A stretch of DNA of 22,936 nucleotides. Origin: Gemmatimonadota bacterium. GTDB lineage: Bacteria; Gemmatimonadota; Gemmatimonadetes; Gemmatimonadales; GWC2-71-9. The position numbers and the translations under genes are program-made. Below the pieces are notes generated by a model. It worked only from the letters and a program-made list of their open reading frames with translations. It was not told the origin of the DNA and made no database searches. How positions within the stretch are numbered: the stretch's first letter is position 1; each line of letters starts with the position of its first letter. Of this stretch, positions 2-19,210 are shown piece after piece. The stretch spans positions 1-22,936 of the forward strand of contig JBDHAB010000050.1 of NCBI GenBank assembly GCA_039588295.1, given 5' to 3'.

Positions 2-748
2 TCGCTGGTCGGCCTTTTTCGGCTCGAGGCAGGGGCCAACACGTTCGGCTCGGCCGCGGACAACGACTTCGTCTTTCCGGAGAAGGCGCCGGCGCAGGCC
101 GGCGTGCTGCGCCTGGACGGCGAAGTCGTCACCGTCGAGCCGGCCGGCGGCGCCGGCATCACAGTGGGCGGCAAGCCGATCGGCCGGATGGCGCTCGCGA
201 GCGACACCACCGGCGCCCCCACGGTGCTCGAAATGGGCTCGCTACGCCTCTACGTCATCGCCCGCCCCAGCGGCCTCTTCGTGCGCCTCAAGGACCGCGA
301 GGCGCCGTTGATCGCGAGTTTCGATGGCATCGAACGGTACCCCGTGCGCGAGAAGTACCGCGTGGTCGCGCGCTTCGAGCCCTACGAACCGCCCAAGATG
401 CTCACCATTCCCAACATCATGGGCTACGAGTCCATCGAGGCGTGTCCGGGCGCGCTCGTCTTCACGCTGGACGGGCAGACGTACCGCCTCGAGCCCACGG
501 TGTCCGGCGACGAATTCTTCGTCGTTTTCGGCGACGAGACGAGCGGCATGGAGACCTACGGCGGCGGCCGCTACATCTACACCGCCATGCCCGACGGCGA
601 GAGCCGCGTGATCCTCGACTTCAACCGGGCCTACAATCCGCCCTGCATATTCACCCATTTCGCCACCTGTGCGCTGCCGCACGCGGACAACATCCTCCCG
701 ATTCGCATCGAGGCGGGCGAGAAGGTCTGGGGAGAGGCGTCCCACTAG
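2..748 (+). CDS. DUF1684 domain protein (5' end lies outside the window)
   Basis: The frame is open from base 2 (SLVGLFRLEAGANTFGSAADND...). It carries the typical DUF1684 C-terminal motifs 'F.D.TSG.ETYGGGRY', 'LDFNRAYNPPC.F...ATC.LP...N.LP.RIEAGEK'. The ORF track start at 104 is internal. Confidence 0.9.
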   Translation, partial: SLVGLFRLEAGANTFGSAADNDFVFPEKAPAQAGVLRLDGEVVTVEPAGGAGITVGGKPIGRMALASDTTGAPTVLEMGSLRLYVIARPSGLFVRLKDREAPLIASFDGIERYPVREKYRVVARFEPYEPPKMLTIPNIMGYESIEACPGALVFTLDGQTYRLEPTVSGDEFFVVFGDETSGMETYGGGRYIYTAMPDGESRVILDFNRAYNPPCIFTHFATCALPHADNILPIRIEAGEKVWGEASH

Positions 749-784
749 GGCGCTCCGCGCCTGTTTGGGCTGCAGAGACAGATT

Positions 785-819
785 CGCCCGGCTCGGGTCG
801 TACAACCACGGGCCGGGCG
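785..819 (+). terminator. Stem-loop downstream of the DUF1684 gene, possible intrinsic terminator
   Basis: cgcccggctcg (785-795) pairs with cgggccgggcg (809-819), 11 bp with one G-U pair, plus an inner ggt/acc stem. It is followed only by a weak 'tctct' tail. Confidence 0.45.
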
Positions 820-947
820 TCTCTGCATAACCCCTTGCGCCCCCGATTGTACCATGGCAGTTCGTGGCGTCAAGACGCCATTTTCGAGACCGGCCCCGCC
901 GCGGGCCGCTGGCGGGCGGACTCGAGGCGGGCCGGCGAAGTGCGGCG

Positions 948-975
948 TTGCCTTTCGGAGCCGCTCCCCTATAAT
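948..975 (+). promoter_or_regulatory. Putative sigma70 promoter for the Na/Pi symporter-phoU pair
   Basis: TTGCCT (948-953), 16-nt spacer, then a perfect TATAAT (970-975) in a GC-rich context. GGAGG follows at 991-995. Confidence 0.6.
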
Positions 976-1032
976 GGGGGGCCTGGACCGGGAGGGTCGG
1001 CTTTCAAACGTCTGCCTTGGAACCATCCGCTG

Positions 1033-2091
1033 GTGCGCGTCGGCGTGCTGCTGGGGTTGCTCTACGTCTTCTTCCTCAGCATTTCGCTCATGGGTGCGTC
1101 GTTCAAGTTCTTCGGCAAGGACTTCGCCGCGCAGCTCATCGAGACGACTTCCAGCCCCTTCGTCGGGCTGTTCATCGGCATTTTCGCCACCAGCCTGGTG
1201 CAGAGCTCCTCGACGACGACGTCCATGACGGTGGGGCTGGTGGCGGGGGGGGTGCTCGACGTAACGCACGCGGTGCCGATCGTGCTCGGGGCAAACATCG
1301 GCACCAGCGTCACCAACACCCTGGTGTCCGTGGGTCACATCTCGCGGCCGGAGGAGTTCCGGCGCGCCTTCGCCGCGGCTACTGTGCACGACTTTTTCAA
1401 CCTGATCTCCGTCCTCATTCTGTTCCCGTTGCAGCTGTGGACCAATTTCCTGGGGCGGGCATCGACGGCCATGGCGGAACGCTTTGCCAATATCGGAGGA
1501 TTGGCGCTGCTCGATCCGGTGAAGACCGTCACCAAACCGGCGGTGGCGTGGGTTACGGAGGTCAGCGGTCAGTCGGGCGTGATCATGCTGCTCGTGTCGG
1601 TCGTGCTCCTCTTCATTGCGCTTCGCTACCTGGTGGTAACACTGCGGGCACTGGTGATCGGCCGCGTCGAGTCGTTCTTCAGCGAGACGCTGTTCCGCAG
1701 CGCCTGGAGCGCCCTGGCCCTGGGGCTGGTGCTCACCATCATGGTCCAGAGCAGCTCGATCACGACGTCGCTGGCCGTGCCCCTGGCGGGCGCCGGCATC
1801 CTGACGCTCGAGCAGATCTTCCCCATGACCATGGGCGCCAACGTGGGCACGACGGTCACGGCCATCCTGGCCTCGCTGGTGACGGGCAGCGTGGCGGCGG
1901 TATCGGTGGCGTTTGCGCACCTCCTCTTCAATATGTGCGGCATCATCATCATCTGGCCGGTGCGGCGCCTGCCGCTGATGCTGGCGCGGTTAGTTGCCAC
2001 GCTGGCGCTCCGGCGCAAGGTGGTGCCGCTGGTGTATATTCTCGTCGTGTTCTACATGATTCCCCTCCTACTCATCACGTTGATGGGGTGA
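1033..2091 (+). CDS. Na+/phosphate symporter (Na_Pi_cotrans, NptA/NaPi-II-like); start codon uncertain
   Basis: Two inverted-repeat signature motifs, 'VQSSSTTTS...GANIGTSVT' and 'VQSSSITTS...GANVGTTVT', plus 'AFAAATVHDFFN' and many TM segments. The track ORF from 442 overlaps DUF1684 and its N-terminal part is not credible. In-frame start candidates are GTG 940, CTG 1012 and GTG 1033. Confidence 0.9.
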   Translation: MRVGVLLGLLYVFFLSISLMGASFKFFGKDFAAQLIETTSSPFVGLFIGIFATSLVQSSSTTTSMTVGLVAGGVLDVTHAVPIVLGANIGTSVTNTLVSVGHISRPEEFRRAFAAATVHDFFNLISVLILFPLQLWTNFLGRASTAMAERFANIGGLALLDPVKTVTKPAVAWVTEVSGQSGVIMLLVSVVLLFIALRYLVVTLRALVIGRVESFFSETLFRSAWSALALGLVLTIMVQSSSITTSLAVPLAGAGILTLEQIFPMTMGANVGTTVTAILASLVTGSVAAVSVAFAHLLFNMCGIIIIWPVRRLPLMLARLVATLALRRKVVPLVYILVVFYMIPLLLITLMG

Positions 2092-2097
2092 TCGGCC

Positions 2098-2772
2098 ATG
2101 TTCAATTTCAGAGAACTGATAGAGCTGTGGCGGAGTGACAACCTGCTCACGCAGGCGCTCAACGACTCGTACGCGATGTTGGACACCACGCGCGACATGT
2201 TCCGCGCGTCCGTGCGCTCGCTGCGCTCTAGCGACAACGGCGAAATGGGTGTCGACGTCTACAAGATGGATCAGCAGGTAAACCAGTACGAGCGGGAAGT
2301 TCGTCGCAAGGTGCTCAAGCACCTCGCCATCACCGGCGGCCTCAACATCATCCCGGGGCTGATCCTCACCAGCATCGTGATCGACGTGGAGCGCATCGGC
2401 GACTACACCAAGAACATCAAGGATCTCGCCGTCGTGCACCCCAAGAAGCTCATGTGCGGGAAGCACGAGGCTGACATCGCGCGCATCGAGCCGGCGGTGA
2501 GCGCACTATTCGACGAAATCATCCCCGCCGTCAAGACCACCGACAAAGAGAGCGCGCGCAAGACCGTCGAGGAAAACTGGTGGATCGTGAAGACGTGCGA
2601 CGAGATCCTCAACAGCCTCATCAGCGACGAAAACTCAGGAATGAGCTCGAGCGACGCGGTGGCCACCGGTCTCTACGCGCGCTACCTCAAGCGCGTAGCC
2701 GCCCACCTGATGAACATCGCTACCAGTGTCGTCAACCCCTTCGAGGGCATCGGCTTCCACCGCGACGCGTGA
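2098..2772 (+). CDS. phoU: PhoU-family phosphate transport regulator
   Basis: Two helical PhoU repeats with 'D..VN.YE.E.R', 'D.ERIGDY.KNI' and 'RYLKRVAAH..NIA'. It starts 6 nt after the symporter stop. Confidence 0.85.
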   Translation: MFNFRELIELWRSDNLLTQALNDSYAMLDTTRDMFRASVRSLRSSDNGEMGVDVYKMDQQVNQYEREVRRKVLKHLAITGGLNIIPGLILTSIVIDVERIGDYTKNIKDLAVVHPKKLMCGKHEADIARIEPAVSALFDEIIPAVKTTDKESARKTVEENWWIVKTCDEILNSLISDENSGMSSSDAVATGLYARYLKRVAAHLMNIATSVVNPFEGIGFHRDA

Positions 2773-2818: not shown

Positions 2819-3997
2819 TCATCGATCCGGAAACCTCCTGCGTATCTCGGCTGGCACCGGGCCGTGGGCCTCCCAGTTCTTGAACCCGAGACGGTCATTG
2901 ACGTCGAGCCACGACGGCTGCTGGTGCCCGCGAAGGTAATCCAGGTCGAGAATCGGCATGGGTAGCTCGATCTCGCGCAGGTCGTCCACGTTGATGTCGG
3001 GCAGCACGGGCAATCGCAGTCGCAACCCCGGAATGTAGAGGCGTAACCCGACGAGTGGCGTGGACGGAAGATCCAGGGCAAGCTCGGGCGCCGGCGTCGC
3101 TGACGAAGCGGCCACTGCGTAGCGCATCCCCGCCGAACGCGCCACTCGCCAGGTGTCGGGCGGCGACACCCAAAACATATAGGCGGTGGGCTGATGCGTC
3201 CCCCATTTGCGCAGCCAGGCGCCCTCGATGTCGTGCACGAGGAACCACTCGAACGGCGCGGGCGGCCCGTCGGATCGCGTGTACTCGACCTTGAAGGTGT
3301 GGTGAGGTGCGATGAGAATCTCAACTTCGTCATCCGATCCGGTCGGAAAGTTCACGCGGAGCACGCGGCGCTTTTGCCCACTGATTTTGACGTCCCTCAC
3401 GCACCACCGCAGCTGCTTGCCGCCGTGACCGGCGACGCCTTTGAGCTTTTCATCCACGCGGTAGCGCATGCACACGCGGCCCATGCCGAGACGTACGCGC
3501 TCGAGGCGCGCCCCGATGAAGAGATTCACATCGGAGTAGCGCAGGTAGAGATCGTGCAGCGTGGCCCCGTCCGCTTCGTACACGCGATAGGGGTCGCAGG
3601 CGAGTCGGACGAGGTCGCGGTAGGCATTGATCGTGCTGATCCGCGCCAACAGATGCGCTGTCTCGAGTGCCTTCTCCTCCTCCGGCGGCCCGTAGCAACC
3701 GGCCCGCAGGAGAGAATCGATCCGTGCAAACTGCCTGGCGTTGAACGACGTATGCCTGCGCGCCATCGAATGGAGCGACGCCGCGGAGAGTGGTATCACC
3801 GACACTTTCAGATCCGGCGCGCAAAGCGGACAACGGTCGGAAGTGGCGGCTGCCTGCAATCTCGACTCGTAACCGGTCACCGCGATCGCCGTCGAGGCAA
3901 TCACGAGCAACGTGGCGCTTCGTCGCAGCACCTGCCCGCCCCGCGTTCTCTCGCGAACCTTCGCGGCCGGCATATGGTTTGATCGAATCCTTTTCAT
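2819..3997 (-). CDS. Hypothetical exported protein (392 aa), last gene of the putative four-gene operon
   Basis: SD AAGGGAG precedes the ATG, 27 nt after the VTT gene stop. It has a basic N-terminus and hydrophobic stretch (LRRSATLLVIASTAIAVTG) followed by a CPLC motif. No family recognised. Confidence 0.7.
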   Translation of the reverse strand: MKRIRSNHMPAAKVRERTRGGQVLRRSATLLVIASTAIAVTGYESRLQAAATSDRCPLCAPDLKVSVIPLSAASLHSMARRHTSFNARQFARIDSLLRAGCYGPPEEEKALETAHLLARISTINAYRDLVRLACDPYRVYEADGATLHDLYLRYSDVNLFIGARLERVRLGMGRVCMRYRVDEKLKGVAGHGGKQLRWCVRDVKISGQKRRVLRVNFPTGSDDEVEILIAPHHTFKVEYTRSDGPPAPFEWFLVHDIEGAWLRKWGTHQPTAYMFWVSPPDTWRVARSAGMRYAVAASSATPAPELALDLPSTPLVGLRLYIPGLRLRLPVLPDINVDDLREIELPMPILDLDYLRGHQQPSWLDVNDRLGFKNWEAHGPVPAEIRRRFPDR

Positions 3998-4024
3998 GAC
4001 AATCTCCCTTGGCTCGCCCCGACT

Positions 4025-4618
4025 TCACAGGGCGATGATTCCTGCTCCCAGCGACGCGTAAATGATTGAGCCTGGCAACGCACCGATGACGATGCTCAAA
4101 ATGTGAACGGGTAGCGGTACACGGTGTGATCCGGCGATGAGATTCGCCAGATTGCACCCCACGCAGGGAACGACTCGCATGACGATCAGCGAACGCAGAT
4201 CGGCGCGGGCGAAGCGCCGCGCCCAGGGCGGCAGGCCCTGCATCCGCTCGCGGATCTGGAAATCGTGTTGGCCACGACGCCACACGTAGTAGAGAGCGAC
4301 GCCCCCGAGCACGGCGCCAGACAGATTGAGAAATACGGCCAGTAACAGGGGGAACAACATGCCATTTAGAATGGGAATCACGCTCGAGCCCATGGGGGTC
4401 ATCGCCATGCTCCCCTGCACCAGTACGACGACAAACGGCGCCACGATCCCCCAGGCACGGATGGTGCTTCCGGGGTCGGCCTGCGAGCCGAGCCACACTT
4501 TGCTCGCAACACTCATTGTCACAAGCGTTGCCAGTTGCCAGAAGAATGGCGCGCGGATGACGGGCATGACGACCTGCCGCACGGTATGTCTTTGCCGGTA
4601 GTTTTGAAGCGCGTCCAT
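4025..4618 (-). CDS. DedA superfamily VTT-domain (TVP38/TMEM64, SNARE_assoc) membrane protein
   Basis: SD GGGAGG upstream. Hydrophobic 197-aa protein with 'P.....I..LNG.LF', 'GA.LGG.ALYY..R', 'R.VP.....AN..AG' and 'IGALPG.IIYA.LG', the VTT/TVP38 pattern. Confidence 0.85.
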   Translation of the reverse strand: MDALQNYRQRHTVRQVVMPVIRAPFFWQLATLVTMSVASKVWLGSQADPGSTIRAWGIVAPFVVVLVQGSMAMTPMGSSVIPILNGMLFPLLLAVFLNLSGAVLGGVALYYVWRRGQHDFQIRERMQGLPPWARRFARADLRSLIVMRVVPCVGCNLANLIAGSHRVPLPVHILSIVIGALPGSIIYASLGAGIIAL

Positions 4619-4656
4619 TGCTGTACCTCCCGCCAGGCTCCGTGGCGAGCCTCGAT

Positions 4657-7600
4657 CTACCCCGCGGCGACCGCAAGGGTCCGGTTAGCGGCCAGCTCCT
4701 CGCGATGCCGGCGGAGAAAGTAATCGATCGTTTCGACACGAATCTTGATCGATCCGGACGATTTGTTTTCGTCGAGATCCTTGAAGCTGAAGTACGGCGT
4801 TCCGGAGCTCTCCACAATGGCCTCGACGGCCGAGTAGATCGGCGCGTCGTGCCCACATCGAAAGCTCGAGACCTCGAGCGCAATCAGGTTGGGATGTCGG
4901 GCCGCAAACTTCGCCGCCCACAGCTTCTGATTCGATACGGAATTGAAAGTGTTCTTCCACACGTCCGAAATATCGAGCGGATGAGCAATGACCCCTGCCT
5001 TCACCTCTTCCCCGAACAAGCGGCTCATCGTGTCGCCGTCGATCGGCAGGCTGTCGGACGTAAAGATGGGATAGCCCCGCTTCTGAAGCTCGCGAAGGAT
5101 GTCGTGGTTGATGCCGGGGTCGCTGTGATAGGGCCTACCGAGGAGTACGATACCCACCTGGTTTTCCATTTCCAGGCGCCGAAGGACCACGCCCGCTCTC
5201 TGTCGCATGTTTTCCTTGTACCGGGCGAGAGCCGCGTAGCCGGCCCCAACCGCGCGGGCGTTTTCCTTTCTCGATAGCCCGAGAAGCCCCGCGAGCTGGT
5301 CGTACATCTGCCGCTCGATGCCCTTCTCCGCAAACGTGTCGCCGTCCCGACTGAATGCCGCTCGCACCGCCGTCGCACTCGCCGTGATGGTGGGACATAC
5401 CCGGCACGCCCGGGTGTTAACGAGATCCGTGGGAAGGTCGTCGAGCATGGGGAAAATGATTGCGTCGAGCGGCTGCTTCCTGTGCTTCTCGAAAATCAAG
5501 TTGTGCACGTGGGCGATGCCGAGTTTGCTCGGGAAGCACGGGTCGATCGACGCTCGCGTGCTGCCCTCGCGGTAGAGCTTTGCGGTGGTGTTATCGGAGA
5601 AGACGATGTTCTTGTGGGCCACACCGAGACTCTCGAAGTATGCGGTCAGGAGAGGCGCCGCCGCGTAAACGTTCAGTACGCGCGGAATCCCGATGCGGAG
5701 AGTTTCGCGCTTCCGCCTGGTCCGCGTGCGCTCCCGAGCCCCACGCGTGAGGGCGATTCGCGGCACTCGCTCGGAGACGATCTCCGGCTCGAAGCTCTTG
5801 AATGCCTCTTTGGCCGCAATAGCGGGGAAGTTGTCCGTGCGACGCAGGACGTCGTTCAGCTGGTCCGCAATCGCGCGAACCTGTTTGGGATCCTCGGCCG
5901 CCCCTTTCTCGCAGGCGTTACCCGTGATCAGCCGCCGCGCTCCGTCCTGCGCCGACTCGGTCTCCATGTCGATGAATGTGCGCTGGCAGTGATTGTTACA
6001 GAAGGGACAGATCGTCTGCTCGCTCGTCGTTGCCGCGTAGGTCATCCGCTCGACCACGTCGAAGCCGATGAAGCTGGTCTTTCGGCCCTGCTCCCACAGC
6101 CGGATCGACTCCATCGCCGCGCCAATCGCGCCGCTCTCGCCGCAGTGCTCGTGGACGACGATGTTGGGCTCCTGTCCCGCGCTTCGTTTCTTCGATCGAA
6201 TGAAATCGACCTGCGCCTTGACGGCGGCGAGATTCCGCTGGGTGCCTCCCTGAAGAACGAACGTCCGGCCGAGGTGGGAGAAATTCGCGATTTGCGCGAC
6301 GTAGAGCCAGATGTTCTTGGGGAGGATCGCCGCCAGACCCGCCATGATCTCGGCGGGCTTCCATCCCTGTCGCTGAAAGTTCACGATGTCGGACTGCAGG
6401 AACACGGCACACCCATAGCTGAACTCGGGCATCTTCTCGGCGCCGAACGCGACCTCGGCGTATTGCTCCACGGGCACCCCGAAGTCCTTGGCGACGTTCT
6501 GCAGGAAATATCCGTTTCCGGCTGAGCACTGCGTGTTGAGCTTGAAATCTTTCACTTTCCCGTTCTGCAGGATCATGATCTTGATGTCCTGCCCCCCGAC
6601 GTCGCAAATGACATCGACGTCGCGATAGAGGTGCATTGCCGAGGCCGCGTGAGCCACGGTCTCTACGATAGCCACGTCTGCGCAGAGAATGTCCTTGAGC
6701 GCATCCTTCGCGTACCCCGTCACGCCCACACCGCGCACAACGAGATGCGCGCCGGTGGACTCGACGGGCGCTCGCAGCCGCTCGAATATCCGCTTCGTGT
6801 CGTCGATTGGATTTCCACTGCAAAGCTCGTAGGCCTTTGCCAGCACCTCCCTGCGCGGATTGAGAAGCACCGCTTTCGTGGAGGTGGAACCGCCGTCGAG
6901 CCCGACGAAAACCTCGACCCGCTCGCCCTGCTTGAAGGCGCGGGGAACGAACGGTTTCTTGCGGTAGGTCTCTTTGAATGCCTCCAGCTCCTCGGCCGAC
7001 CGTACGAGACCTTGCGCGAGCGCGCGGCTGGTCTGGGCCTTTCGTCCCGCCAGAAAGCGCTCGAGCTTCTTCCAACCCGTGTACGGTCGCGCGACGTCGT
7101 CCGCCCCGTCGTCGGCCTCGATCGCCCCCAGGGCGGCGAAGTACTGCGCCTTGTCGGGCACGCTGATGAGCGACCTGGGATCGACCCCCTCGGGCAGCGG
7201 GTATCCCCTTTCTTCCCACGTCCGGGGAATGTTGGCCCGCCAAGCCTCCTGCATTCCGCGGATGTAGGTGTTGGGCCCGCCGAGGAGAAGAACGTGCGGG
7301 CGAAGCGTGTGGCCCCTCGTGAGCACGGAGAGGTTCTGTCCCACGATGGCCTGGAACAGACTCGCCATGAGCTGGTCGTTGGGAATTCCCTGCACCTTGA
7401 GGCTGTTGACGTCGGTCTCGGCAAACACACCGCACTTCCCGGCAACGTGGTGCAGCTTGAGACCGTCGTAGCCCTGCTTGGAGAGCTCTTCGGGCCGGAT
7501 GCCGAGTTTCGCGCTGATCTTGTCGAGCACGGCGCCCGTCCCTCCCGCGCACTTGTCATTCATGCTGGGGATCTTTTTCTTGCATCCGCTCTTGGGATCG

Positions 7601-7959
7601 TCCTTGAAGATGATGATTTTTGCGTCCTGGCCACCGAGCTCGACGACGGAACCCACTTCCGGATAGCGATTCTCGACGGCCACCGAGACGGCGTTCACCT
7701 CCTGGACAAACCTGGCGCCAACCAGGCCTTCCAGCGCGCGCGCGCCGCTCCCGGTGGCCGCGACCGTGATCTGCTCGTCGGCGACGTCGGGAAAGTCGTC
7801 CTCGATTCGCTTGAGGAACTCGAGAACCTTTTCCAGCTGCCGCGTCTCGTGACGCTGGCAGTCCTGCCAGAGGAGTTTTCCCGATGCGGCGTCGGTGACG
7901 ACCGCCTTTACCGTGGTGGATCCAACGTCCAGTCCCAGTTTCAGAGTGATCTCATTCAT
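4657..7959 (-). CDS. CoA-substrate-specific enzyme activase with two BcrAD_BadFG ATPase domains plus DUF2229/reductase-type C-terminus (PlsA/Ger-like architecture)
   Basis: Two ASKHA modules: 'GLDVGSTTVK...ELGGQDAK...NDKCAGGTG...KCGVFAETD' and 'GLDGGSTSTK...DVGGQDIK...NTQCSAGNG...GCAVFLQSD'. These are followed by 'CPFCNNHC...GNACEKG', 'IGIPRVLN', 'DPCFPSK', 'GRPYH.DPGINH.I' and 'SSFRCGHDA'. Start taken as ATG 7959 (SD GAGGTG), overlapping the upstream stop. Confidence 0.9.
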   Translation of the reverse strand: MNEITLKLGLDVGSTTVKAVVTDAASGKLLWQDCQRHETRQLEKVLEFLKRIEDDFPDVADEQITVAATGSGARALEGLVGARFVQEVNAVSVAVENRYPEVGSVVELGGQDAKIIIFKDDPKSGCKKKIPSMNDKCAGGTGAVLDKISAKLGIRPEELSKQGYDGLKLHHVAGKCGVFAETDVNSLKVQGIPNDQLMASLFQAIVGQNLSVLTRGHTLRPHVLLLGGPNTYIRGMQEAWRANIPRTWEERGYPLPEGVDPRSLISVPDKAQYFAALGAIEADDGADDVARPYTGWKKLERFLAGRKAQTSRALAQGLVRSAEELEAFKETYRKKPFVPRAFKQGERVEVFVGLDGGSTSTKAVLLNPRREVLAKAYELCSGNPIDDTKRIFERLRAPVESTGAHLVVRGVGVTGYAKDALKDILCADVAIVETVAHAASAMHLYRDVDVICDVGGQDIKIMILQNGKVKDFKLNTQCSAGNGYFLQNVAKDFGVPVEQYAEVAFGAEKMPEFSYGCAVFLQSDIVNFQRQGWKPAEIMAGLAAILPKNIWLYVAQIANFSHLGRTFVLQGGTQRNLAAVKAQVDFIRSKKRSAGQEPNIVVHEHCGESGAIGAAMESIRLWEQGRKTSFIGFDVVERMTYAATTSEQTICPFCNNHCQRTFIDMETESAQDGARRLITGNACEKGAAEDPKQVRAIADQLNDVLRRTDNFPAIAAKEAFKSFEPEIVSERVPRIALTRGARERTRTRRKRETLRIGIPRVLNVYAAAPLLTAYFESLGVAHKNIVFSDNTTAKLYREGSTRASIDPCFPSKLGIAHVHNLIFEKHRKQPLDAIIFPMLDDLPTDLVNTRACRVCPTITASATAVRAAFSRDGDTFAEKGIERQMYDQLAGLLGLSRKENARAVGAGYAALARYKENMRQRAGVVLRRLEMENQVGIVLLGRPYHSDPGINHDILRELQKRGYPIFTSDSLPIDGDTMSRLFGEEVKAGVIAHPLDISDVWKNTFNSVSNQKLWAAKFAARHPNLIALEVSSFRCGHDAPIYSAVEAIVESSGTPYFSFKDLDENKSSGSIKIRVETIDYFLRRHREELAANRTLAVAAG

Positions 7960-9766
7960 GGTCAGCACACCTCTGCAGAATTGCCCATGGGGCGCGCGCG
8001 CCTTCCGCGTGCGCGCTCCCTGAGTCGCTCTTCATCAACTGCGACACGTGCAGCGCAAGGAGCGCCGCCCGGCCGACGATTCCGTTTTGTCTCGGCACGC
8101 GATACATGGGGCGCTTGAGCTCGGGATGGGCGTCGACGTACGCGCGCACCTTCTGCATGCTCAGCCCCACTTCGGTCAGGGTGGATTCGAGCTCTTTCCT
8201 GGCCTTCGCCCGTGCATTAGCCAGCGCCATCTGCACCCGGCTGTAGGCGAGGATCTCGCTGTCGCCGGATGTTTCGATGGGCAGGTAGATGAGGTCGTTA
8301 TAGTCTTCGAGGACGGCCGCCTGCGCGCCGTCCGATTGCGTGCTGGGCATGCATCCGAACGGCTTTAAACTCAGCACCATGTGGCAGAGGTTATGGGTCT
8401 GGTAGTAGATGTTCTCCCCGACCTCGAGATGCCCCTCTCCCGACGCGCAGCGCCACTCGTAGTACGGGGCCGCGAGCTGCTGGAATTTGCGCTGATCGAC
8501 GATCTTGTGGAGCGTCCCGTTGAGCGCGTCGATCAACCGGTCGTTCTCGCGTCTGTAGAGCTTCTCTGCCAGGGTGAGCAGGCCCAGCTTTCGGACATAC
8601 CCGATGCGCTGCGAGAGCAGCCTTTTCGGCCGCCGGATGGAGACGGCCTTCCCGTTCGCGTCTATTCCCTTCTTCGCCCTGGCCATCTGCTTGGCCATGT
8701 GAAAGATGTACATGAGCCGCGTGCCGATCATCCGGTCGACGTAGGCTTCCGCCCGCTCGTCCTCCAGAAACCTCACCATGCGGAAGTTGCCGTCGCCATC
8801 CGTAGTCTGCGCCCAGAACTCGCCGATCACCCTCACGATGGGACGCACCCGCAGGTGGTCGATCTCGATCGCATCGAACTCGGCGCGCGCGCGTGTCATC
8901 GCATCCACGAGATCTCTGTTGAACAGCTGCCGGAAGACTTTGGCGACATAGACGAACGGGGCACCGAACCCGATCGCGGAGAACACCGTCCTCCACAACC
9001 CCGGCGGCGAATACGGCGTGCGCTTCTCCAGGAGATCGGCCACCATCTCCATCACGCGTTCGAGCACCTCGTCGGTCTTTCCCGGCTCAACTTCGTAGGG
9101 CCTGATCTGGCAGGCGAGCTGGTTGAGGATGTCTCCCAGGTTGAGGGCGTTGGCCAGCGCGAGAAAAAAGTCGAAGTTCATTTCCAGGCCCGCGCCGTCC
9201 TCGGCCTGGTCGGGCGCGCGGTCGATGCCGAACGTGAGGATGCGGAAGCCCACGAAGCCGGCGTTGCGCAGAGCCAACTGGTACTCTTCCTCGTACATGC
9301 CGAAGCGGCACGTCCCGCAGCTGCCGGCCGTCAGAAAGACGTATCGATCGGCGATCTCCTGCCGGCTCAGGCCGTTCGCTTCGAGCGACTGCAGGTGCTT
9401 GACGAGATTGCCGACCGTGAAGTAGGCCGGGTTGCAGTAAGCGTTATTCTGGAACTCCTTCCCCGTCTGGTAGGCGCTAAGATCCGGCGTCGGCAGGGCC
9501 TCGCACGAGTAACCGAGGCTGCGCATGGCCGCTTCGGCGAGTCTTTCATGTATAGAAGAGAGACCGCCGATTAGTATGGTGGTCTTCTCTCGCTCCCTGC
9601 GAATGAAGGGGCGCGTGAGCGGACGGTGGTAGTGCCTTCGCCCTTCGGTCTCCCCCGAAGAATCCTTCTGTAGACACTGCTGTGATGGAACGTACACAGG
9701 TTCATCGTCCTGGGCGCAAACGTTCGCGCTTCTTCCTTGTGCGCTAAACTGTTTGACGACTCTCAT
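7952..9766 (-). CDS. 2-hydroxyacyl-CoA dehydratase/reductase-type Fe-S subunit (PlsR-like partner of the activase)
   Basis: Motifs 'GKEF.NN..CNP.YFTVGNL', 'GSCGTCRFGMY', 'IRPYE..PG.TD', 'IGEFWAQTT.GDGNF', 'GEGHLEVG' and 'LKPFGCMPSTQSDG'. Start taken as ATG 9766 with SD AGGAG rather than the track's TTG 9796. Confidence 0.85.
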   Translation of the reverse strand: MRVVKQFSAQGRSANVCAQDDEPVYVPSQQCLQKDSSGETEGRRHYHRPLTRPFIRREREKTTILIGGLSSIHERLAEAAMRSLGYSCEALPTPDLSAYQTGKEFQNNAYCNPAYFTVGNLVKHLQSLEANGLSRQEIADRYVFLTAGSCGTCRFGMYEEEYQLALRNAGFVGFRILTFGIDRAPDQAEDGAGLEMNFDFFLALANALNLGDILNQLACQIRPYEVEPGKTDEVLERVMEMVADLLEKRTPYSPPGLWRTVFSAIGFGAPFVYVAKVFRQLFNRDLVDAMTRARAEFDAIEIDHLRVRPIVRVIGEFWAQTTDGDGNFRMVRFLEDERAEAYVDRMIGTRLMYIFHMAKQMARAKKGIDANGKAVSIRRPKRLLSQRIGYVRKLGLLTLAEKLYRRENDRLIDALNGTLHKIVDQRKFQQLAAPYYEWRCASGEGHLEVGENIYYQTHNLCHMVLSLKPFGCMPSTQSDGAQAAVLEDYNDLIYLPIETSGDSEILAYSRVQMALANARAKARKELESTLTEVGLSMQKVRAYVDAHPELKRPMYRVPRQNGIVGRAALLALHVSQLMKSDSGSAHAEGARAPWAILQRCADHE

Positions 9767-9824
9767 TTCTCGGCTCCTACGAAAGAATGGTTGCAACGCC
9801 GGTGATATTGCTGAAGTAGACTAC

Positions 9825-9840
9825 TGCAACCACCGCGCCA
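9825..9840 (-). promoter_or_regulatory. sigma54 (-24/-12) promoter of the four-gene operon
   Basis: The minus strand reads TGGCGC-GGTGG-TTGCA, against the consensus TGGCAC-N5-TTGCW with exact GG-N10-GC spacing. It lies about 60 nt upstream of ATG 9766 in the correct orientation. Confidence 0.75.
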
Positions 9841-10179
9841 CGCGCAATTCACGCGTGACCCGGTCGTGTCTGTGAGCCCACGCGGCACGGGCGTGGAGAC
9901 GGCCGTCATTGATCCGAACACGACTAAGAAGATGGTGACCTCGGCGATGTCCGCGGGTGCGTCAGGCGTTCACAATCGTTCACAGCGGAGTGTTCTGTTG
10001 TGTACATCCAACGGCGGGAAGTAGCGGTGTCCGCAGCGGGACTCAGAGCCCGATGTGCGCTCAAGACAACGAGATAGACGGGCACGCGCCGGCAGTTACG
10101 GGCCGGGTACAGTCCATGCTCTTGATGGATGAATGGGGACGCAGAACAACTCACCCTTACTCCATAAGGAGAGCCCAAG

Positions 10180-11415
10180 ATGCTGAACCATCATTCATTG
10201 ATTAGTGGTCTCGCCGTCGTTGTCGTGATCGCAACGCTGGCTGGATGCTCCGATAGGTCCGCGTCGCCGCTGGAACCGACGTGGGATTTCCAGATCTTTC
10301 CAAGCCGCGGCGTTGCCATCGACCCGCCCACTGGTGTCGTCGATGTAACAGCCGGTGAAGAAACGTTGTCCCTGTTTCCATATACGGGGAACGACTTCAG
10401 CGGCAACCCCGTCGACCCTATTAACATTGTGTTTGTCGGGAATGTGGATGCGACCACGATCCGCAACGCACTGATGGCGCTCGATGGCGACCGGACCGGC
10501 GCCGGCTTTCCACCGGTCGCACCGTTCAACGGCACCTGGAGCGACGCGCTCGGCGGTGTTCAGACCACGTATGCCGATGGTGCCGGCTGGGTTGGCAGCG
10601 TCGTGCAGCTGAACCTCGGGGGGTATGGCCCCGTACGCGTTCACCTGCGGCTGTTCGAGACCCGTCAGCCCTACGACGACGGCGGTAAGTGGACGCTCGG
10701 CGGCGCCCACTTCGAAGTGCTTATCCCGGGGACGACGGATCATCAGGTACTCGGCTGGGAACTGGCCGAGCTGATCGTCGTCTCGGATCTCGTGCGCAGC
10801 GGGCTCGTGGTCGCCACGTCGTCCAGCGGCGTCATCAACGCGGCGCCGAGTTTCCGGACCATTCCCGCCATGATTTACAATGGCATTCCCGATGAGCTCA
10901 AGCTACTGGCTGGTCTGCCGGTTGGACCCTCCACCACCGATGTGCCGATTCCATCTGACGGAGAGGCGACGGTGCTGCAAATCGAGGGTGAGGTTTCGAG
11001 CATTGCCGACAGCCGCGAGGCGTCGTTCACGCTGCAGTTCAGCCAGATCATCCCCAAGCCGTTCTGCAGCGACAGTCCCTTCGACTATCTGCTCGTGGAG
11101 GGGCCAGTGTCGCTGCGTAAGGTCGTTCGCATCTCGGCGCAAGGATCATACGCCTACGACGCGGCAATTCGGGGGCAGTTGACAGCGACACCGGTCGACG
11201 TCACGCAGAATCCACCGGTTCCGGCGGGCGAGCCCTTCAAAGTAACCGCGAGCGACGTTCAGCACGGATTCATTTCTGCCAGCGACGCTCGCGTGTCAAT
11301 GCAGGGGAAACGCATCATTATCGGCAACGGCGCCGAAAAGCAGTTCACCCGGCTCGAAGTTCACGAGCGCGGCACGAATGATTTCCGCGTCGACGTCAAG
11401 TGCCTCCAAGATTAA
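10180..11415 (+). CDS. Hypothetical lipoprotein, possibly with a distant LssY C-terminal-like domain
   Basis: SD AAGGAG, then a signal peptide with lipobox LAGC. The order of motifs 'DPINIVFVG', 'RVHLRLF', 'WTLGGAHFE', 'HQV' recalls LssY_C. The C-terminal third is beta-rich. Confidence 0.75.
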   Translation: MLNHHSLISGLAVVVVIATLAGCSDRSASPLEPTWDFQIFPSRGVAIDPPTGVVDVTAGEETLSLFPYTGNDFSGNPVDPINIVFVGNVDATTIRNALMALDGDRTGAGFPPVAPFNGTWSDALGGVQTTYADGAGWVGSVVQLNLGGYGPVRVHLRLFETRQPYDDGGKWTLGGAHFEVLIPGTTDHQVLGWELAELIVVSDLVRSGLVVATSSSGVINAAPSFRTIPAMIYNGIPDELKLLAGLPVGPSTTDVPIPSDGEATVLQIEGEVSSIADSREASFTLQFSQIIPKPFCSDSPFDYLLVEGPVSLRKVVRISAQGSYAYDAAIRGQLTATPVDVTQNPPVPAGEPFKVTASDVQHGFISASDARVSMQGKRIIIGNGAEKQFTRLEVHERGTNDFRVDVKCLQD

Positions 11416-11420
11416 TGCGC

Positions 11421-11462
11421 TCGGGCACCGGAGCAGCAACGGACGCTCGCTCCGGTGCCCGA
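11421..11462 (+). terminator. Strong intergenic stem-loop (terminator or mRNA-stabilising hairpin)
   Basis: tcgggcaccggagc (11421-11434) is the exact reverse complement of gctccggtgcccga (11449-11462). It is followed by 'agttctt'. Confidence 0.6.
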
Positions 11463-11486
11463 AGTTCTTGAAGAGAGGGAAGAACG

Positions 11487-12371
11487 ATGAAAGCGCGACA
11501 CGACAATTGGTCTCTCCTGGCAGCCGTCGCAATCGTTGCACCAATGGCTGTCGGCGTTCCGGACAGTGACAGCACGTACAGCACGACGGTTACCCTGGGC
11601 GGCGGCATGGGAAGGCATGGAACGGGCCTCGACGTCTATCTGGGCACGATGTCGGGATCGGGGTACGAGTGCGATGGCACGTACGTACCAGGTCACGAAG
11701 TGCGTGGTCCCCTCGATCTGGAAGAAACATTCACGGACATTGGGGGCGGTATCGATCATCGAGTCGGGAACTCCAGAGTGCACCTCGGCGTTCGGGGTGG
11801 GTACGTCTGGGAGGAAGCAACCCTCGTGGGCAGCGCGCCGATCAACCCGTTTACGAACGAACCCGTGGACCTCTCGGAAGCGATGGGCTCCTATGCGAAA
11901 ACAGCGTACTGGTACGTCAATCCCTACCTGGCGATCGAGGCGAGCAATGTCGGCATAGGTTTTGGCGTTGTTCGCTCGCAGATTCCGCTTCGAACGGACA
12001 AAGAGCAGAGAATACCCGAGGACCTCGGAAAGGGCGCGGGCACCCAGCCTTCGTTTCACCTCCGCCTGGGACCGCGCGACCTTCTGTACGTTTCGTACAG
12101 CCTCTGGGAGGGAATCCCCATCTACTCGGGTGGCGGCATGCACAACGCCGGTGTCGGCTTTCAACCGGGTCGCCAGCTCGACGTGTGGGCCGGCTACGCC
12201 TTCGGGGGCCCGTATCAGACCGACGGGGTGTATCTGCGCACAACAGTGGGAGCCGCTTCACCGGTGGCCTTGAACCTATCCCTCCGCGTGCCAGCCACGT
12301 ACCAAACCGCTGACGGAATCGGATGGATCAACGAGGTCGGCGGAAGTGTGGGGGTGCAGTTTCGCAGATGA
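11487..12371 (+). CDS. Hypothetical exported protein, probable outer-membrane beta-barrel
   Basis: SD-like GAGGGAAG and an N-terminal signal peptide. Many Gly/aromatic-rich amphipathic strands (VHLGVRGGYVW, LDVWAGYAFGG, VALNLSLRV) end in 'VGGSVGVQFRR'. Confidence 0.7.
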   Translation: MKARHDNWSLLAAVAIVAPMAVGVPDSDSTYSTTVTLGGGMGRHGTGLDVYLGTMSGSGYECDGTYVPGHEVRGPLDLEETFTDIGGGIDHRVGNSRVHLGVRGGYVWEEATLVGSAPINPFTNEPVDLSEAMGSYAKTAYWYVNPYLAIEASNVGIGFGVVRSQIPLRTDKEQRIPEDLGKGAGTQPSFHLRLGPRDLLYVSYSLWEGIPIYSGGGMHNAGVGFQPGRQLDVWAGYAFGGPYQTDGVYLRTTVGAASPVALNLSLRVPATYQTADGIGWINEVGGSVGVQFRR

Positions 12372-12397
12372 ATCCGGAGCGTGTAATCACCACAGTA

Positions 12398-12426
12398 TTG
12401 CCACCAACCCCCGCGGGGACTAGGAT
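12398..12426 (+). promoter_or_regulatory. Putative sigma70 promoter of the TonB-dependent receptor
   Basis: TTGCCA (12398-12403), 17-nt spacer, TAGGAT (12421-12426). Confidence 0.5.
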
Positions 12427-12502
12427 GGGTTCACCGCCATGGCGTCATGCTCTGCACCGTGATTCCCGTCACGCTCGAGAGTTCTGACAAGGAGAGAGAG
12501 CC

Positions 12503-15064
12503 ATGAATCTCTGGTGTTTGATTCTGATCGCGAGTCTTGCCGCGGAGCCGCCGCCAGCGCCGGGATCCATTCACGGCGTCGTGCGCGCCGCAGAGACGGG
12601 TGAGCCGCTTTTCCTCGCCCAGGCTCAACTGGTAGCGGCACCGCCGCGCGATTACCAGTGGAGCGGTGCCACCGGACGGACGGGCGAGTTTCGCGCAGAC
12701 GGCCTCGCGCCAGGCGCCTACCGGCTGACCGTCACGTACGCGGGACGCGCGCCCTGGACGTGGGAGCTTCTCGTCGAAAGCGGTTCTGTAACAGAGGTCG
12801 AAGTCGACCTCCTGTTCAGGCTCTACGAGGTGGGCACAATCGTGACCACCGGTTCCCGGCGCGAAGAGAAGGTGCTGGAAGTTCCCGCGCGCGTACAGGT
12901 GATCACGGGAGATGAAACGCGATCGAGAACGGTGCTCACACCACTCGATCACATGCAGGGCAAGCCTGCTTTGGATGTCGCGCGAACGGGGTTGAACCAG
13001 GGCACCGTTGTTATTCGCGGTTTCAACAATATCTTTTCGGGGGCCACGCTGACGCTGGTCGATCATCGCATCAGCCGCCTGCCCTCGCTCCGCTATAACG
13101 CGTTCAATCTCATTCCCACTTCGTACGACGATATCAAGCAGGTCGAGGTGGTGTCCGGTCCCGGTTCGGCGCTCTACGGCCCCAACAGCGCCAACGGCGT
13201 TCTTCATATACAGACCCTGTCGGCGTTCGACTCCGCGGGTACGAGCGCGACCGTGGCGGGCGGGAATCGCGGCGTGGGGATGGTCTCCGGGAGACACGCT
13301 CGGCTTTGGGGCGATCGGGTCGGCTTCAAGGTGACGGCACAATATCACCAGGGTGAAGACTTCCCGTTCGACGATCCGGCCGAGCAGTTCCCGCGGGAAT
13401 ACACGAACAAGCGGCTTGCCGTTGAGGGCCGCGTGGATGTCCGCTCCGACGCCGGCGCCCTTTTCGCCTTCAGCGGCGGATGGAACCAGCTCGATGCGGT
13501 GGAACTCACACCGCTGGGCGCCTCGCAGGCCTCGGAGCTGAGCTACGGTTATGGTCAGGCACGGATGACGTGGGGAGATTGGTTTGCGCAGACCTACGTC
13601 ACGACCAACGACGCCGGAGATTCGTTCAACCTGCGCACCGGCGACGACTTCGTCGACACGTCCAAGCTCATCGTCGGTGAAGTGCAACGTCGCTGGGGGC
13701 CGCACGACCGGCTGGCTCTCATCACCGGTGTCGACATGCTGTTGACGCGGCCGCAGACGGGCGGAACCATCAATGGCCGCAACGAAGACATCGACAACAT
13801 CGACGAGCTGGGGGGATACGTCCACGCGGAGACCGAACTGTCCCGGAGATGGACGCTCGTGGCGGCAGTGAGACTCGACGGACACAGCGAGCTCGAGGAC
13901 CCGGTGGTCTCGCCGAGGGCCGCGGTCTTGTACGAGCCCGCACTCGGTCAACGAATTCGCGCTACCTATAACCGGGCGTTTTCGACGCCCACGTCCACCA
14001 ACCTGTTTCTCGACCTGATGGCCGGGCAGGACATTTTCGCGGGCGCAGGGCTGAACGGCTTCGACTTGTGGGCCAAGGGCGTGCCCGAGTCGGGCTTCCG
14101 GTTCCAGCGCGACGCGATGGGTGGGGTCGACGGCCTTTACATGCAGGTGCCGGAGACGATGGGCGGAACCCCCGACCACATTCCGGCGGACGCCACGCTC
14201 ATGTGGCCGTTCATCCAGCAGATTATCGGACCGATTCCCGCGCCCACGCCGGCCGAGGTCTCAACCGTGCTTGCCACGGCCGACCCGAACACGGGTAGCT
14301 TCGTTTCCACAGCGCCCGAAGAAGTGCGCGACATCGACCGACTCCAGCCCACCATTACCAATACCTTCGAGGTGGGTTACACCGCGCTGTTCGGCGAACG
14401 TTTCTTGCTGTCGGCCGACGTCTACCACAGCCGCATCGAGAATTTCGTGGGGCCGCTGAGAATCGAAACCCCCAACGTATTTCTCGAGCAGTCCACCCTG
14501 CGCAACTATCTCGTCACCTACATGTCACCCGCGCAGGCCGACGCGGTCGCAGCCCAGCTCGCCGGCATTCCCTTGGGCACGGTAACACCGGACGGCACAC
14601 TCGACCCCGCCGACCTCATGCTCACGTATCGCAACTTCGGGATGGTGGACCTCACGGGTTTCGACATCGGCACACGGTTCCGCCTGCATCCCAGCTGGAC
14701 GCTCGCGCTCAATTACTCCTACGTAAGCGACAACTTCCTCGAGAATGTCGAGGGCGGAATCGACGTCGCGCTCAATGCCCCACAGCACAAAGCGGGCGCC
14801 GGCATCGAGTACCGGCTTCCCCGCCATCGCTTGGGGGCCGGCGTCCGGGCTCGCTACGTGGACGGCTTCCCCGTGCAATCCGGCGTATATTCGGGTTACG
14901 TCGACGCCTACACGCTCGCCGACGTCACGGCGACGTACGAGGTGCTGCCGAAGACGCACCTCGGATTGACGGTGCAGAACGCGTTCGATCACAGGCACCA
15001 GGAGTTCGTCGGCGCGCCGTTGATCGGCCGCACCGCGCTGCTGCGACTGACGAGGGCGTTCTAG
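12503..15064 (+). CDS. TonB-dependent receptor with N-terminal carboxypeptidase-regulatory-like domain
   Basis: Signal peptide; 'GSIHGVV...TGEPL..A', 'GLAPGAYRLTVTYAG'; TonB-box-like 'TIVTTGSRREE'; plug 'IRGF...LVD', 'IKQVEVVSGPGSALYGPNSANGV'; barrel end 'VQNAFD...GR.....LTRAF'. SD AAGGAG. Confidence 0.95.
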   Translation: MNLWCLILIASLAAEPPPAPGSIHGVVRAAETGEPLFLAQAQLVAAPPRDYQWSGATGRTGEFRADGLAPGAYRLTVTYAGRAPWTWELLVESGSVTEVEVDLLFRLYEVGTIVTTGSRREEKVLEVPARVQVITGDETRSRTVLTPLDHMQGKPALDVARTGLNQGTVVIRGFNNIFSGATLTLVDHRISRLPSLRYNAFNLIPTSYDDIKQVEVVSGPGSALYGPNSANGVLHIQTLSAFDSAGTSATVAGGNRGVGMVSGRHARLWGDRVGFKVTAQYHQGEDFPFDDPAEQFPREYTNKRLAVEGRVDVRSDAGALFAFSGGWNQLDAVELTPLGASQASELSYGYGQARMTWGDWFAQTYVTTNDAGDSFNLRTGDDFVDTSKLIVGEVQRRWGPHDRLALITGVDMLLTRPQTGGTINGRNEDIDNIDELGGYVHAETELSRRWTLVAAVRLDGHSELEDPVVSPRAAVLYEPALGQRIRATYNRAFSTPTSTNLFLDLMAGQDIFAGAGLNGFDLWAKGVPESGFRFQRDAMGGVDGLYMQVPETMGGTPDHIPADATLMWPFIQQIIGPIPAPTPAEVSTVLATADPNTGSFVSTAPEEVRDIDRLQPTITNTFEVGYTALFGERFLLSADVYHSRIENFVGPLRIETPNVFLEQSTLRNYLVTYMSPAQADAVAAQLAGIPLGTVTPDGTLDPADLMLTYRNFGMVDLTGFDIGTRFRLHPSWTLALNYSYVSDNFLENVEGGIDVALNAPQHKAGAGIEYRLPRHRLGAGVRARYVDGFPVQSGVYSGYVDAYTLADVTATYEVLPKTHLGLTVQNAFDHRHQEFVGAPLIGRTALLRLTRAF

Positions 15065-15129: not shown

Positions 15130-16473
15130 TCACACCTCGATATTGAGGTCTTTCATGAGGCGATTCAGGTAGCTTCTTTGAATCCCCAGCAGTTCTGAGG
15201 CGCGTGTCTGGTTGCCATCGCTCGACCGAAGGGCCCGGCGCACGATCTGCCGCTTGGCCTCCACCAGCGCTTCCTTGTACCCGAGCGATCCGATATCGGC
15301 ACGCCCCGCCGAGGGTCCATCGAGCACCTCGGGGGGGAGCATCATGGGCATCAACGTTGAATCGCGACACATCACCGCCATGCGTTCGACGGCGTTGCGC
15401 AGCTGGCGAACGTTTCCCGGCCACGGATAACGCTTCATGATCTCCAGAGTTTTGGGGGCGAAGGAGAGCGCTTCGCGTTTGAATTCGGCTACGAACCGCT
15501 CCAGAAACGCCTGCGCCAGAACCTCGATGTCCTCGACGCGCTCGCGCAGCGGCGGAACGCGCAGGATGATCACGTTGAGACGGAAGTAGAGGTCGTCCCG
15601 GAACCGTCCCGACGCGATCTCCTCTTCGAGGTTGCGATTTGTGGCAGCAATGAGCCGGCAGTCGACGGTAACCGTTTGATCCCCGCCCACTCTCTCGAAC
15701 TGGCCCGATTCCAAAAAGTGCAACAGCTTCGCCTGGAGCGTCGGGGAGATATCTCCAATCTCGTCGAGGAACGCCGTCCCACCAGCCGCCGACTCGAGGC
15801 GCCCGGACTTGCTCTTCACCGCGCCCGTGAAGGCTCCGCGCTCGTGTCCGAAGAGCGTCGACTCGATGAGCTCATCCGAGATCGCCACGCAGTTGACGTA
15901 CACGAACGGGCCGCCTCCCCGCGGGCTCTTGCTGTGGATGTGCTCGGCGATCACCTGCTTGCCGCTTCCGCTCTCACCGGTGAGCAGCACAGTGCTGTCG
16001 AACGCCGCCGCCCGCTCGGCCTCTTCGTAGAGCTGCCGCATGACGGCCGACGGGCCCATGACCGGCGAGGGGGTGCTTTCCCGCAGCGCCTTGTTCACGC
16101 GCTTGAGCTGCCGGCCTTCGAGCGATCGCTCCACGACTTTCTTTAGCAGGCTCATATCCGCCGGCTTGGTGAGATAATCGGTGGCCCCGCGCCGCAGTCC
16201 GTCGACGGCGCTCTCCACAGAGCCGTGGGCCGTCAGCACCACGATGTCGGCGTCGCACTCGTTGGCCACGAGGCGATCGAGCACGTCGAGCCCGGACATG
16301 TCGGGCATATTGAGGTCGAGCAGGATCAGATCGAACCGTTTGGCGGCAGCAACTTCGAGCGCTTCTGTGCCGTTCTCGGCAACGTCGACGTCGTGCCCCC
16401 AGAAGCGGAAGCGATCGCCGAGAACGCGTCGCAGAGCCTCTTCGTCGTCGACGATGAGCACGGATGCCTTCAT
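15130..16473 (-). CDS. sigma54-dependent response regulator (NtrC/AtoC family: receiver, AAA+, Fis-type HTH)
   Basis: Receiver 'LIVDDE...LLDLNMPD...TAHG...KP'; Walker A GESGSGKQ; 'ESTLFGHERGAFTGA'; 'FLDEIG'; 'FRDDLYFRLNV'; 'WPGNVRQL'; HTH 'GNQTRASELLGI.R'. Confidence 0.96.
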   Translation of the reverse strand: MKASVLIVDDEEALRRVLGDRFRFWGHDVDVAENGTEALEVAAAKRFDLILLDLNMPDMSGLDVLDRLVANECDADIVVLTAHGSVESAVDGLRRGATDYLTKPADMSLLKKVVERSLEGRQLKRVNKALRESTPSPVMGPSAVMRQLYEEAERAAAFDSTVLLTGESGSGKQVIAEHIHSKSPRGGGPFVYVNCVAISDELIESTLFGHERGAFTGAVKSKSGRLESAAGGTAFLDEIGDISPTLQAKLLHFLESGQFERVGGDQTVTVDCRLIAATNRNLEEEIASGRFRDDLYFRLNVIILRVPPLRERVEDIEVLAQAFLERFVAEFKREALSFAPKTLEIMKRYPWPGNVRQLRNAVERMAVMCRDSTLMPMMLPPEVLDGPSAGRADIGSLGYKEALVEAKRQIVRRALRSSDGNQTRASELLGIQRSYLNRLMKDLNIEV

Positions 16474-18881: not shown

Positions 18882-19210
18882 GCTTGAACCTCTGAACCGG
18901 CGTGTCGGAGATTCTCCCCCTGTGGTCAATCGCAGGTGCAGATGCGGCGGCGGATCTCTCGGTCGGTTTGACAGTATCGCGTTCGCGCAAACCTCAAAGT
19001 GAGGCCACAGCCACGCTTTAGCGAGTGTATCACAGGTGGATCATAGCGCCGCCTCGGCTCGCCGGGGCCGCAGTCGGGTAATCATTGGGGTAACGTATTT
19101 GACGAAACCAGCTTAGCGGTTAGGCGCTGCGAGAACCTCGGATCCCATGATGGAATCCGCCCGCGGACGTCGGCCTGGGGAGTGGTCGGGGGAACCCTCG
19201 CGCTCACAGC

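Follow-up and report, generated by a model that had tools for sequence, protein, structure and literature searches.

We examined a stretch of 22,936 nucleotides (nt), positions 1 to 22,936 of contig JBDHAB010000050.1 from the assembly GCA_039588295.1 of a Gemmatimonadota bacterium (hereafter, the window), which contains an operon that may make and move ether lipids. We refer to the source assembly as G000, to the contig as C50, and to the four proteins of the operon as P0001 to P0004. The four genes lie in a row on the minus strand, with gaps of -8, 38, and 27 nt, and a purine run resembling a Shine-Dalgarno (SD) sequence precedes each of the four starts (AGGAG, GAGGTG, GGAGGT, and GGGAG). The original prediction, which was made from the sequence alone, had described this arrangement, and we recovered the same coordinates and SD sites. 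These four genes are a real operon:

7952..9766, minus strand: P0001, a PlsR-like iron-sulfur (Fe-S) reduction/dehydration subunit of 604 amino acids (aa), recognized by profile matches and invariant cysteines
4657..7959, minus strand: P0002, a PlsA-like subunit of 1100 aa, with two PF01869 domains, a CxxCxxxC...C linker, and PF09989 (the DUF2229 reductase domain)
4025..4618, minus strand: P0003, a DedA/VTT-family membrane protein of 197 aa and candidate lipid translocase (PF09335, E = 2.9e-15)
2819..3997, minus strand: P0004 (the orphan), an exported protein of 392 aa and, from its homologues and gene context, a candidate periplasmic lipid-binding or lipid-acting protein

Neither P0001 nor P0004 had any match in Pfam or NCBIfam. 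P0003 is a small membrane protein with four hydrophobic segments, and its PF09335 match places it in the DedA/VTT family. No transmembrane segments were found in P0001 or P0002.

Judging by sequence, P0001 and P0002 are a split form of the PlsA/PlsR/Ger enzyme, from a deep branch of that family. The original prediction had preferred this family to the HgdABC/Bcr systems, and trees, profile controls, and Fe-S cysteines bear the choice out. P0002 has the family's architecture: two PF01869 domains followed by PF09989, that is, two activation domains and one reduction domain (BBD). Instead of grouping with the soluble acyl-CoA dehydratases, for which the phylogeny served as a check, both activase domains of P0002 nest with Pls domains of the Listeria/Collinsella/Fusobacterium type in a 41-row tree (Shimodaira-Hasegawa-like approximate likelihood ratio test [SH-aLRT] support of 100 and 99), and the seven HAD/Bcr-type activases lie across a branch with support of 100. 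These were quick trees with SH-aLRT support only and midpoint roots, and the references were stand-ins chosen by architecture. The scores of the Bcr equivalog were far below its cut-off, and the pair does not have the make-up of a HAD/Bcr system (free single activases and HgdAB/BcrBC-type subunits).

P0001 is the second reduction/dehydration unit, as indicated by profile matches and aligned motifs. The PF06050 model does not match it. We built a profile from 120 homologues of P0001, with 5 HAD-type subunits and 12 other Pls-type rows as controls. This profile matched the C-terminal part of fused Pls proteins as well as free PlsR-type proteins (E = 1e-13 to 1e-28); 10 of the 12 other Pls-type rows were matched, and Brevibacillus was matched at 1e-157. 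The match to Monoglobus was marginal (E = 0.001), Paraclostridium was not matched, and none of the five HAD-type controls gave a significant hit. Four cysteines of P0001 (C111, C150, C153, and C472) are invariant in 120/120 homologues, and the core Fe-S cysteines of both proteins are invariant in about 120 homologues each. The cysteine motifs of the activase, linker, and reductase regions align with those of Pls-type proteins. In addition, the branch has invariant features of its own: an extra cysteine (Cys606) and a GSCGTCR motif with an added cysteine (Cys150). The branch stands apart in a tree built on the full BBD region (support 100, stem length 2.43) and takes in Brevibacillus along with proteins that bear the names Marinimicrobia, Latescibacteria, Krumholzibacteria, and Blastocatellia. 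Acidobacterial names (Terriglobia and Blastocatellia) occur among the homologues. When 8000 candidates for P0001 were scored, 7204 passed E = 0.001, a count that takes in weaker relatives. Scanning the genome collection with P0001 alone gave one locus.

G000 and its relatives encode other proteins of these kinds. Contig C34 of G000 has a fused PlsA/Ger-type gene of 1487 aa that belongs to a different branch and shares 24-25% identity with the pair in the window (G000:C34:17506-21807; L037:7381-11841, minus strand), and contig C1 has two adjacent free activase genes of the HAD/Bcr type (G000:C1:42927-44530). Relatives of G000 (L038-L046) have at least two further split branches of the PlsA/PlsR type, in the order plsA then plsR.

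The two small genes are the reason to consider that the pair works together with lipid transport. We surveyed 28 metagenome loci that contain the orphan. In three of them (L048, L050, and L051), a PlsA-like gene, a VTT gene, and the orphan follow one another in that order, with the VTT gene in the same position as in the window, and one contig from sequencing run X1 spans the orphan, the VTT gene, and the end of plsA. The predicted linkage of these genes in related sequences is thus present. In 2 of the 28 loci, PplT (PF03706) lies directly upstream of the orphan instead: L069 and, in fragments, L054, which has a piece of an activase, a piece of PplT, and the orphan, appears to be broken or chimeric, and counts weakly. 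Four full-length proteins of 728-730 aa, from NCBI, JGI, and ENA, are fusions of PplT and the orphan (P0193, P0408, P0409, and P0410). In genome G422, which has two Pls-family paralogues of this branch, the orphan comes immediately after a PlsA-like gene and runs to the contig end, and a second contig begins with the C terminus of the orphan and continues with PplT; we infer that these contigs join (PlsA-like, orphan, PplT). The Pls-linked orphans form one clade (10 rows, support 98). Some PlsA-like and orphan proteins also have longest contigs of equal length (78961, 16245, and 26872), but this evidence is indirect and we did not include these cases among the loci.

The same slots are filled differently in genome family f7, where 16/301 genomes contain the pair, all 16 of which we examined. 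PplT adjoins the pair in five, in four of which it is fused to a C-terminal tetratricopeptide repeat (TPR) domain, and in one genome the TPR protein stands alone behind the pair. The fusions (RMD/PTPIP51-like) lie directly behind the PlsR/PlsA-like pair at L132:14089-16023 (P0422), L159, L163, and L169. The best PDB match of the TPR domain is RMDN3/PTPIP51 (7cc7, E = 0.0018). DedA and PplT are unrelated families of lipid translocases: DedA proteins flip lipids, and their genes adjoin those for the synthesis of their own cargo (described in PMC10193950), and PplT is given as the flippase domain of MprF (10.1101/2022.03.11.483950). For comparison, we searched 21 other loci (19 from other Pls branches and 2 from this one) and found no such partner in any of them, although single-sequence queries were used and distant forms may escape them.

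Other genes with possible roles in lipid metabolism lie near two members of the branch. In genome G326, lgt is 20 nt upstream of the pair (L134:10378-11223). In Brevibacillus, the pair follows lantibiotic dehydratase genes, with plsA preceding plsR, and a gene of the diacylglycerol kinase family is two genes downstream (L076:14713-15597).

The orphan belongs to a small family, with 50 close homologues and 93 matches at 50% clustering among 1.84 billion representatives. By hydropathy alone, 54 of 59 full-length members have an N-terminal hydrophobic stretch, and 4 of 59 have one further in. The AlphaFold2 model of the mature protein combines helices with a long beta sheet (predicted local distance difference test [pLDDT] of 91, predicted template modeling score [pTM] of 0.88). 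Four fold searches with two models gave best Z scores of 5.2 and 5.6 and no Foldseek match with E of 0.001 or less, and neither Pfam (on 69 members), nor a sequence profile against PDB, nor the ESM Atlas (consulted twice) identified the family; such failures would not prove that the fold is new. The invariant residues include H268, D339, R341, W276, W363, and W375.

A distant subfamily of the orphan, about 25% identical, is the last gene of TatT-DctP-DctQ-DctM operons at 9/9 loci, all of them kin. According to the available parts of PMC11713862, TatT proteins bind long-chain fatty acids and belong to proposed importers. These loci (L113-L120 and L122) come from one small phylum, and the orphan paralogue is a fifth, exported gene; the operons are often convergent with a 5'-nucleotidase gene, and the arrangement is broken in G426. 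Because three different contexts point to lipid movement, our best guess is that the orphan binds lipids or acts on them, and it probably handles lipid in some way. For both small genes, lipid handling is a matter of guilt by association, from the PplT replacement and fusion and from the TatT-TRAP context.

The copy of plsA in the window seems to be damaged, at this site:

5314..5318, minus strand: loss of 45 nt in frame, which removes 15 aa from the DUF2229 domain, between two TCGAG microhomologies

P0002 is missing 15 residues after residue 881. This segment is kept in 119/119 aligned homologues and is present in 4/4 sequencing runs that we checked, so in this copy the reductase domain of the PlsA/PlsR/Ger family is not intact. 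P0394 is an intact allele, otherwise identical to P0002 at 1098/1100 residues, and its contig (30,959 nt) also encodes VTT, PhoU, and regulator proteins that are identical to those of the window. The gap is either a lesion in the strain or a collapse in the assembly. Because the 15 missing residues are conserved, the allele in the window would be either inactive or misassembled, and P0394 would be the intact natural form.

Two short sequence features lie upstream of the operon:

9825..9840, minus strand: sigma-54 (-24/-12) promoter-like site with 11/12 consensus matches; the first start codon lies about 60 nt downstream
9991..10006, strand not assigned: TGT-N10-ACA palindrome, a weak pattern match that may be an enhancer-binding site, some 150 nt upstream of the -24 box

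We scored the site at 9840-9825 against the sigma-54 consensus. In the 4.5-Mb genome, no more than 11 sites reach this score, and about 4e-4 would be expected within 300 nt on one strand. The bare pattern TGGC-N7-TTGC was rejected as promoter evidence: it occurs twice in the window, where 0.88 are expected, and 26 of 100 shuffled sequences contain at least that many. No sigma-54 site was found ahead of 16 related loci from 15 genomes (the best had 9/12 matches), and TGGC-N7-TTGC is not found upstream in L031, so we rejected sigma-54 control as a general feature of the branch. The -24/-12 promoter of the original prediction stands in the form of the fuller site, while its bare pattern is at chance level and the site is not conserved; the claim of an inducible module under sigma-54 control is local at best. 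Sigma-54 may still drive the operon in this lineage. A scan for sigma-70 promoters gave none, and a terminator search on the operon strand gave none. RpoN is encoded in G000, but on a contig other than C50, which may be foreign; an NtrC-type regulator is encoded on C50 itself. At 15130-18929 of the window (minus strand), 5.3 kb from the promoter, a membrane histidine kinase with a GAF domain is encoded together with an NtrC-type sigma-54 response regulator, and this pair is a candidate activator of the operon.

C50 is probably not from the lineage of G000: it is likely Krumholzibacteria DNA that was misbinned or recently transferred. Among 60 relatives of G000, P0002 had no match above 36% identity. 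The orphan was not found in 400 genomes of G000's phylum, and the PlsR type of P0001 was found in three of these, none of them in G000's family. The DNA of L048, whose proteins are named Candidatus Krumholzibacteria by NCBI, is 90-92% identical to the window over 5.5 kb, phosphate genes included. Other copies of nptA-phoU and of peroxiredoxin are already present in G000. The composition of C50 is only mildly odd (rank 12 of 174 chunks by tetranucleotides; by codons, rank 9 of 60 contigs and 7 of 22 small ones), and composition is a weak test of misbinning. Because of the probable foreign origin, G000's RpoN and its fused Pls gene on C34 may not share a cell with the operon, and we set both aside as same-cell context.

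We lean slightly towards a reading in which the enzyme pair converts an ester of a phospholipid into an ether by reduction, after which the translocase would move this product and pass it to the exported protein. The chemistry of the family suggests that ATP hydrolysis would drive low-potential electrons along a chain of [4Fe-4S] clusters to the ester carbonyl at sn-1 of a membrane phospholipid, where reduction and dehydration would yield an alkyl or vinyl ether on the cytoplasmic side. Gene context suggests that the DedA/VTT protein, or PplT in other lineages, would let the newly made lipid equilibrate to the outer leaflet, and that the orphan (in other lineages, an RMD/PTPIP51-like TPR domain) would bind the lipid, or its acyl or alkyl chain, in the periplasm for onward transfer. 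As reported in the available parts of PMC13159169 and PMC12838417, every assayed member of the PlsA/Ger family makes ether lipids.

Several points weigh against this reading. The validated Pls and Ger enzymes are absent from our trees, and the branch is about 30% identical to canonical-type PlsA and has no assayed member; furthermore, according to the accessible text of PMC13274423, sequence cannot tell Ger from PlsA, with no diagnostic motif established. The original prediction is also weakened by the deletion in this copy of P0002, and by the promoter site, which related loci do not share. The association with the small genes is also patchy. Thirteen of the 28 orphan loci have at least 600 nt upstream and other neighbors (10 more are too short), neither helper is present in 7 of the 16 f7 genomes (3 are cut by contig ends), and the pairs of Brevibacillus and G326 have no helpers. 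The exact set of four genes is confined to one small lineage. The linked loci are kin and not independent. The distant orphan subfamily is present in 12/12 genomes of G422's phylum, and only 1 of the 12 has this type of PlsR. The other known context of the orphan, TatT-TRAP, is an import system, and for the PTPIP51 TPR, a proposed phospholipid-transfer domain, lipid binding is described as disputed (PMC10243591, in part).

The import context raises the question of direction. The orphan might capture a lipid from outside (a fatty acid, a lysolipid, or an ether lipid), the translocase might import it, and the Fe-S pair might reduce, dehydrate, or cleave it for reuse, in an anaerobic salvage operon that is induced by its substrate through sigma-54. 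Sigma-54 control often marks catabolic operons, and translocases of the DedA and PplT/MprF types need not be directional; the place of the orphan's distant subfamily at the end of operons for TatT proteins and their fatty acids (above) would also fit. However, none of the assayed PlsA/Ger-family enzymes in the available parts of published work is catabolic, genes for acyl-CoA ligase, beta-oxidation, and outer-membrane uptake are absent from the operon and from the neighborhoods that we scanned, and many pairs have no transport gene at all. We consider salvage unlikely.

Alternatively, the helpers might move the product of some other lipid change, such as the reduction or dehydration of hydroxy- or oxo-acyl chains, or etherification at sn-2. 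This could account for the depth of the branch, with its long stem and its added Cys606 and Cys150, and there are several Pls paralogues per genome (two of this branch in G422, and the fused one on C34 in G000), which suggests a division of labor; also, the formation of the sn-2 ether is called enigmatic in the part of PMC8788747 that is available. Nevertheless, all core cysteine motifs align with those of canonical-type Pls, and nothing hints directly at another substrate, so we judge this explanation rather improbable. Still less probable, in our view, is that the pair reduces a soluble, non-lipid substrate and that the VTT protein and the orphan are lineage-specific passengers. In its favor, the pair has no transmembrane segments, most members of the branch have no helpers, and the orphan family is mostly found elsewhere. 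But the slots beside this branch are occupied by translocases of two families with no relation to each other and by two periplasmic domains that are likewise unrelated, versus 0/21 comparison loci, and the activase domains do not group with HAD/Bcr activases.

The neighboring genes of the window are as follows. A divergent run on the plus strand (10180-15064), which shares a 413-nt intergenic region with the operon, encodes two hypothetical exported proteins (411 and 294 aa), neither with a Pfam match, and a TonB-dependent receptor. At 104-2772 (plus strand) are genes for a DUF1684 protein, a Na/Pi cotransporter, and PhoU, which are syntenic with those of L048, with protein identities of 87-89%; two more nptA-phoU pairs occur in G000, at 29-46% identity. 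In L048, a 5'-truncated peroxiredoxin gene lies directly behind the orphan (L048:2767-3282) and is 96% identical to the window's gene at 19211-19849.

If the association between ether-lipid synthesis and lipid movement holds, it bears on how ether lipids of the inner leaflet reach the outer leaflet or the outer membrane, and on the ether-bond enzyme of most Acidobacteria. The swapping of unrelated translocase families is evidence, independent of domain architecture, that this PlsA/PlsR branch works on membrane lipids. The orphan is a small soluble protein with no known family or fold, which makes it a cheap test object, and it may give a second foothold in TatT-TRAP transport. A broader proposal, which is doubtful as a whole but conceivable, is that the branch, widespread in Acidobacteria and in Gemmatimonadota-type and Krumholzibacteria-type genomes, forms the ethers of environmental diderms and is accompanied by a modular line for export, with a DedA or PplT flippase and then a periplasmic carrier. 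The orphan would then be a new lipid-carrier fold, used for ether-lipid export and, in its paralogues, as the fifth component of TatT-TRAP systems.

Among the closest known systems is the plasmalogen synthase PlsA/PlsR of Clostridium perfringens (CPE1195/CPE1194), which is likewise split into two genes, with a large subunit of two PF01869 domains and PF09989, a homologous second subunit, and Fe-S cysteine motifs in common with Pls-type proteins (PMC8788747, PMC10087280, and PMC12838417, as far as these describe it). In contrast, the order here is plsR then plsA, and the identity to canonical-type stand-ins is about 30%. Also, the second subunit here (604 aa) has extra invariant cysteines and no PF06050 match, and a flippase gene and an exported gene are attached. 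The glycerol ester reductase Ger of Thermotoga maritima (Tmari_0479) and of Desulfatibacillum alkenivorans (SHJ90043) has the same BBD core, which is said in the accessible part of PMC13159169 to be kept in all alkyl-ether producers, but Ger is one polypeptide and the window's enzyme is split. Homologues with BBD only are reported from Latescibacterota (10.64898/2026.06.23.733905, in part). Acid_0922/Acid_0921 of Solibacter usitatus are drawn with the same architecture (two PF01869 domains and PF09989, and a partner without PF06050) and are the proposed PlsAR for precursors of brGDGTs (glycerol dialkyl glycerol tetraethers of the branched type), with identities above 30% to PlsA and above 20% to PlsR; the available parts of PMC10087280 describe no translocase or exported partner for them. 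Compared by description and not by sequence, we infer that the Solibacter pair belongs to the same branch as the window's pair.

For the small genes, the Bacillus operon pssA-petA-psd, in which a DedA flippase gene accompanies the genes that make its cargo (PMC10193950), and PplT/YbhN next to clsB (10.1101/2022.03.11.483950) follow the same logic of a lipid enzyme with a translocase, at least as outlined there. The enzyme and the lipid differ, and the operon in the window has a periplasmic partner in addition. Distant paralogues of the orphan form the fifth gene of operons for TatT-TRAP (TPAT) fatty-acid transporters (in the sense of PMC11713862), but the orphan is not a TatT protein (it has no PF16811 match, and it has an alpha/beta fold), and there are no TRAP genes in the window. 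We found no published description of the helper module or of the orphan family, although the supplements of the bioRxiv preprints and of the Ger papers could list such neighbors. Overall, the type of enzyme core is already known; what appears to be new is that two accessory slots recur beside it with unrelated occupants.

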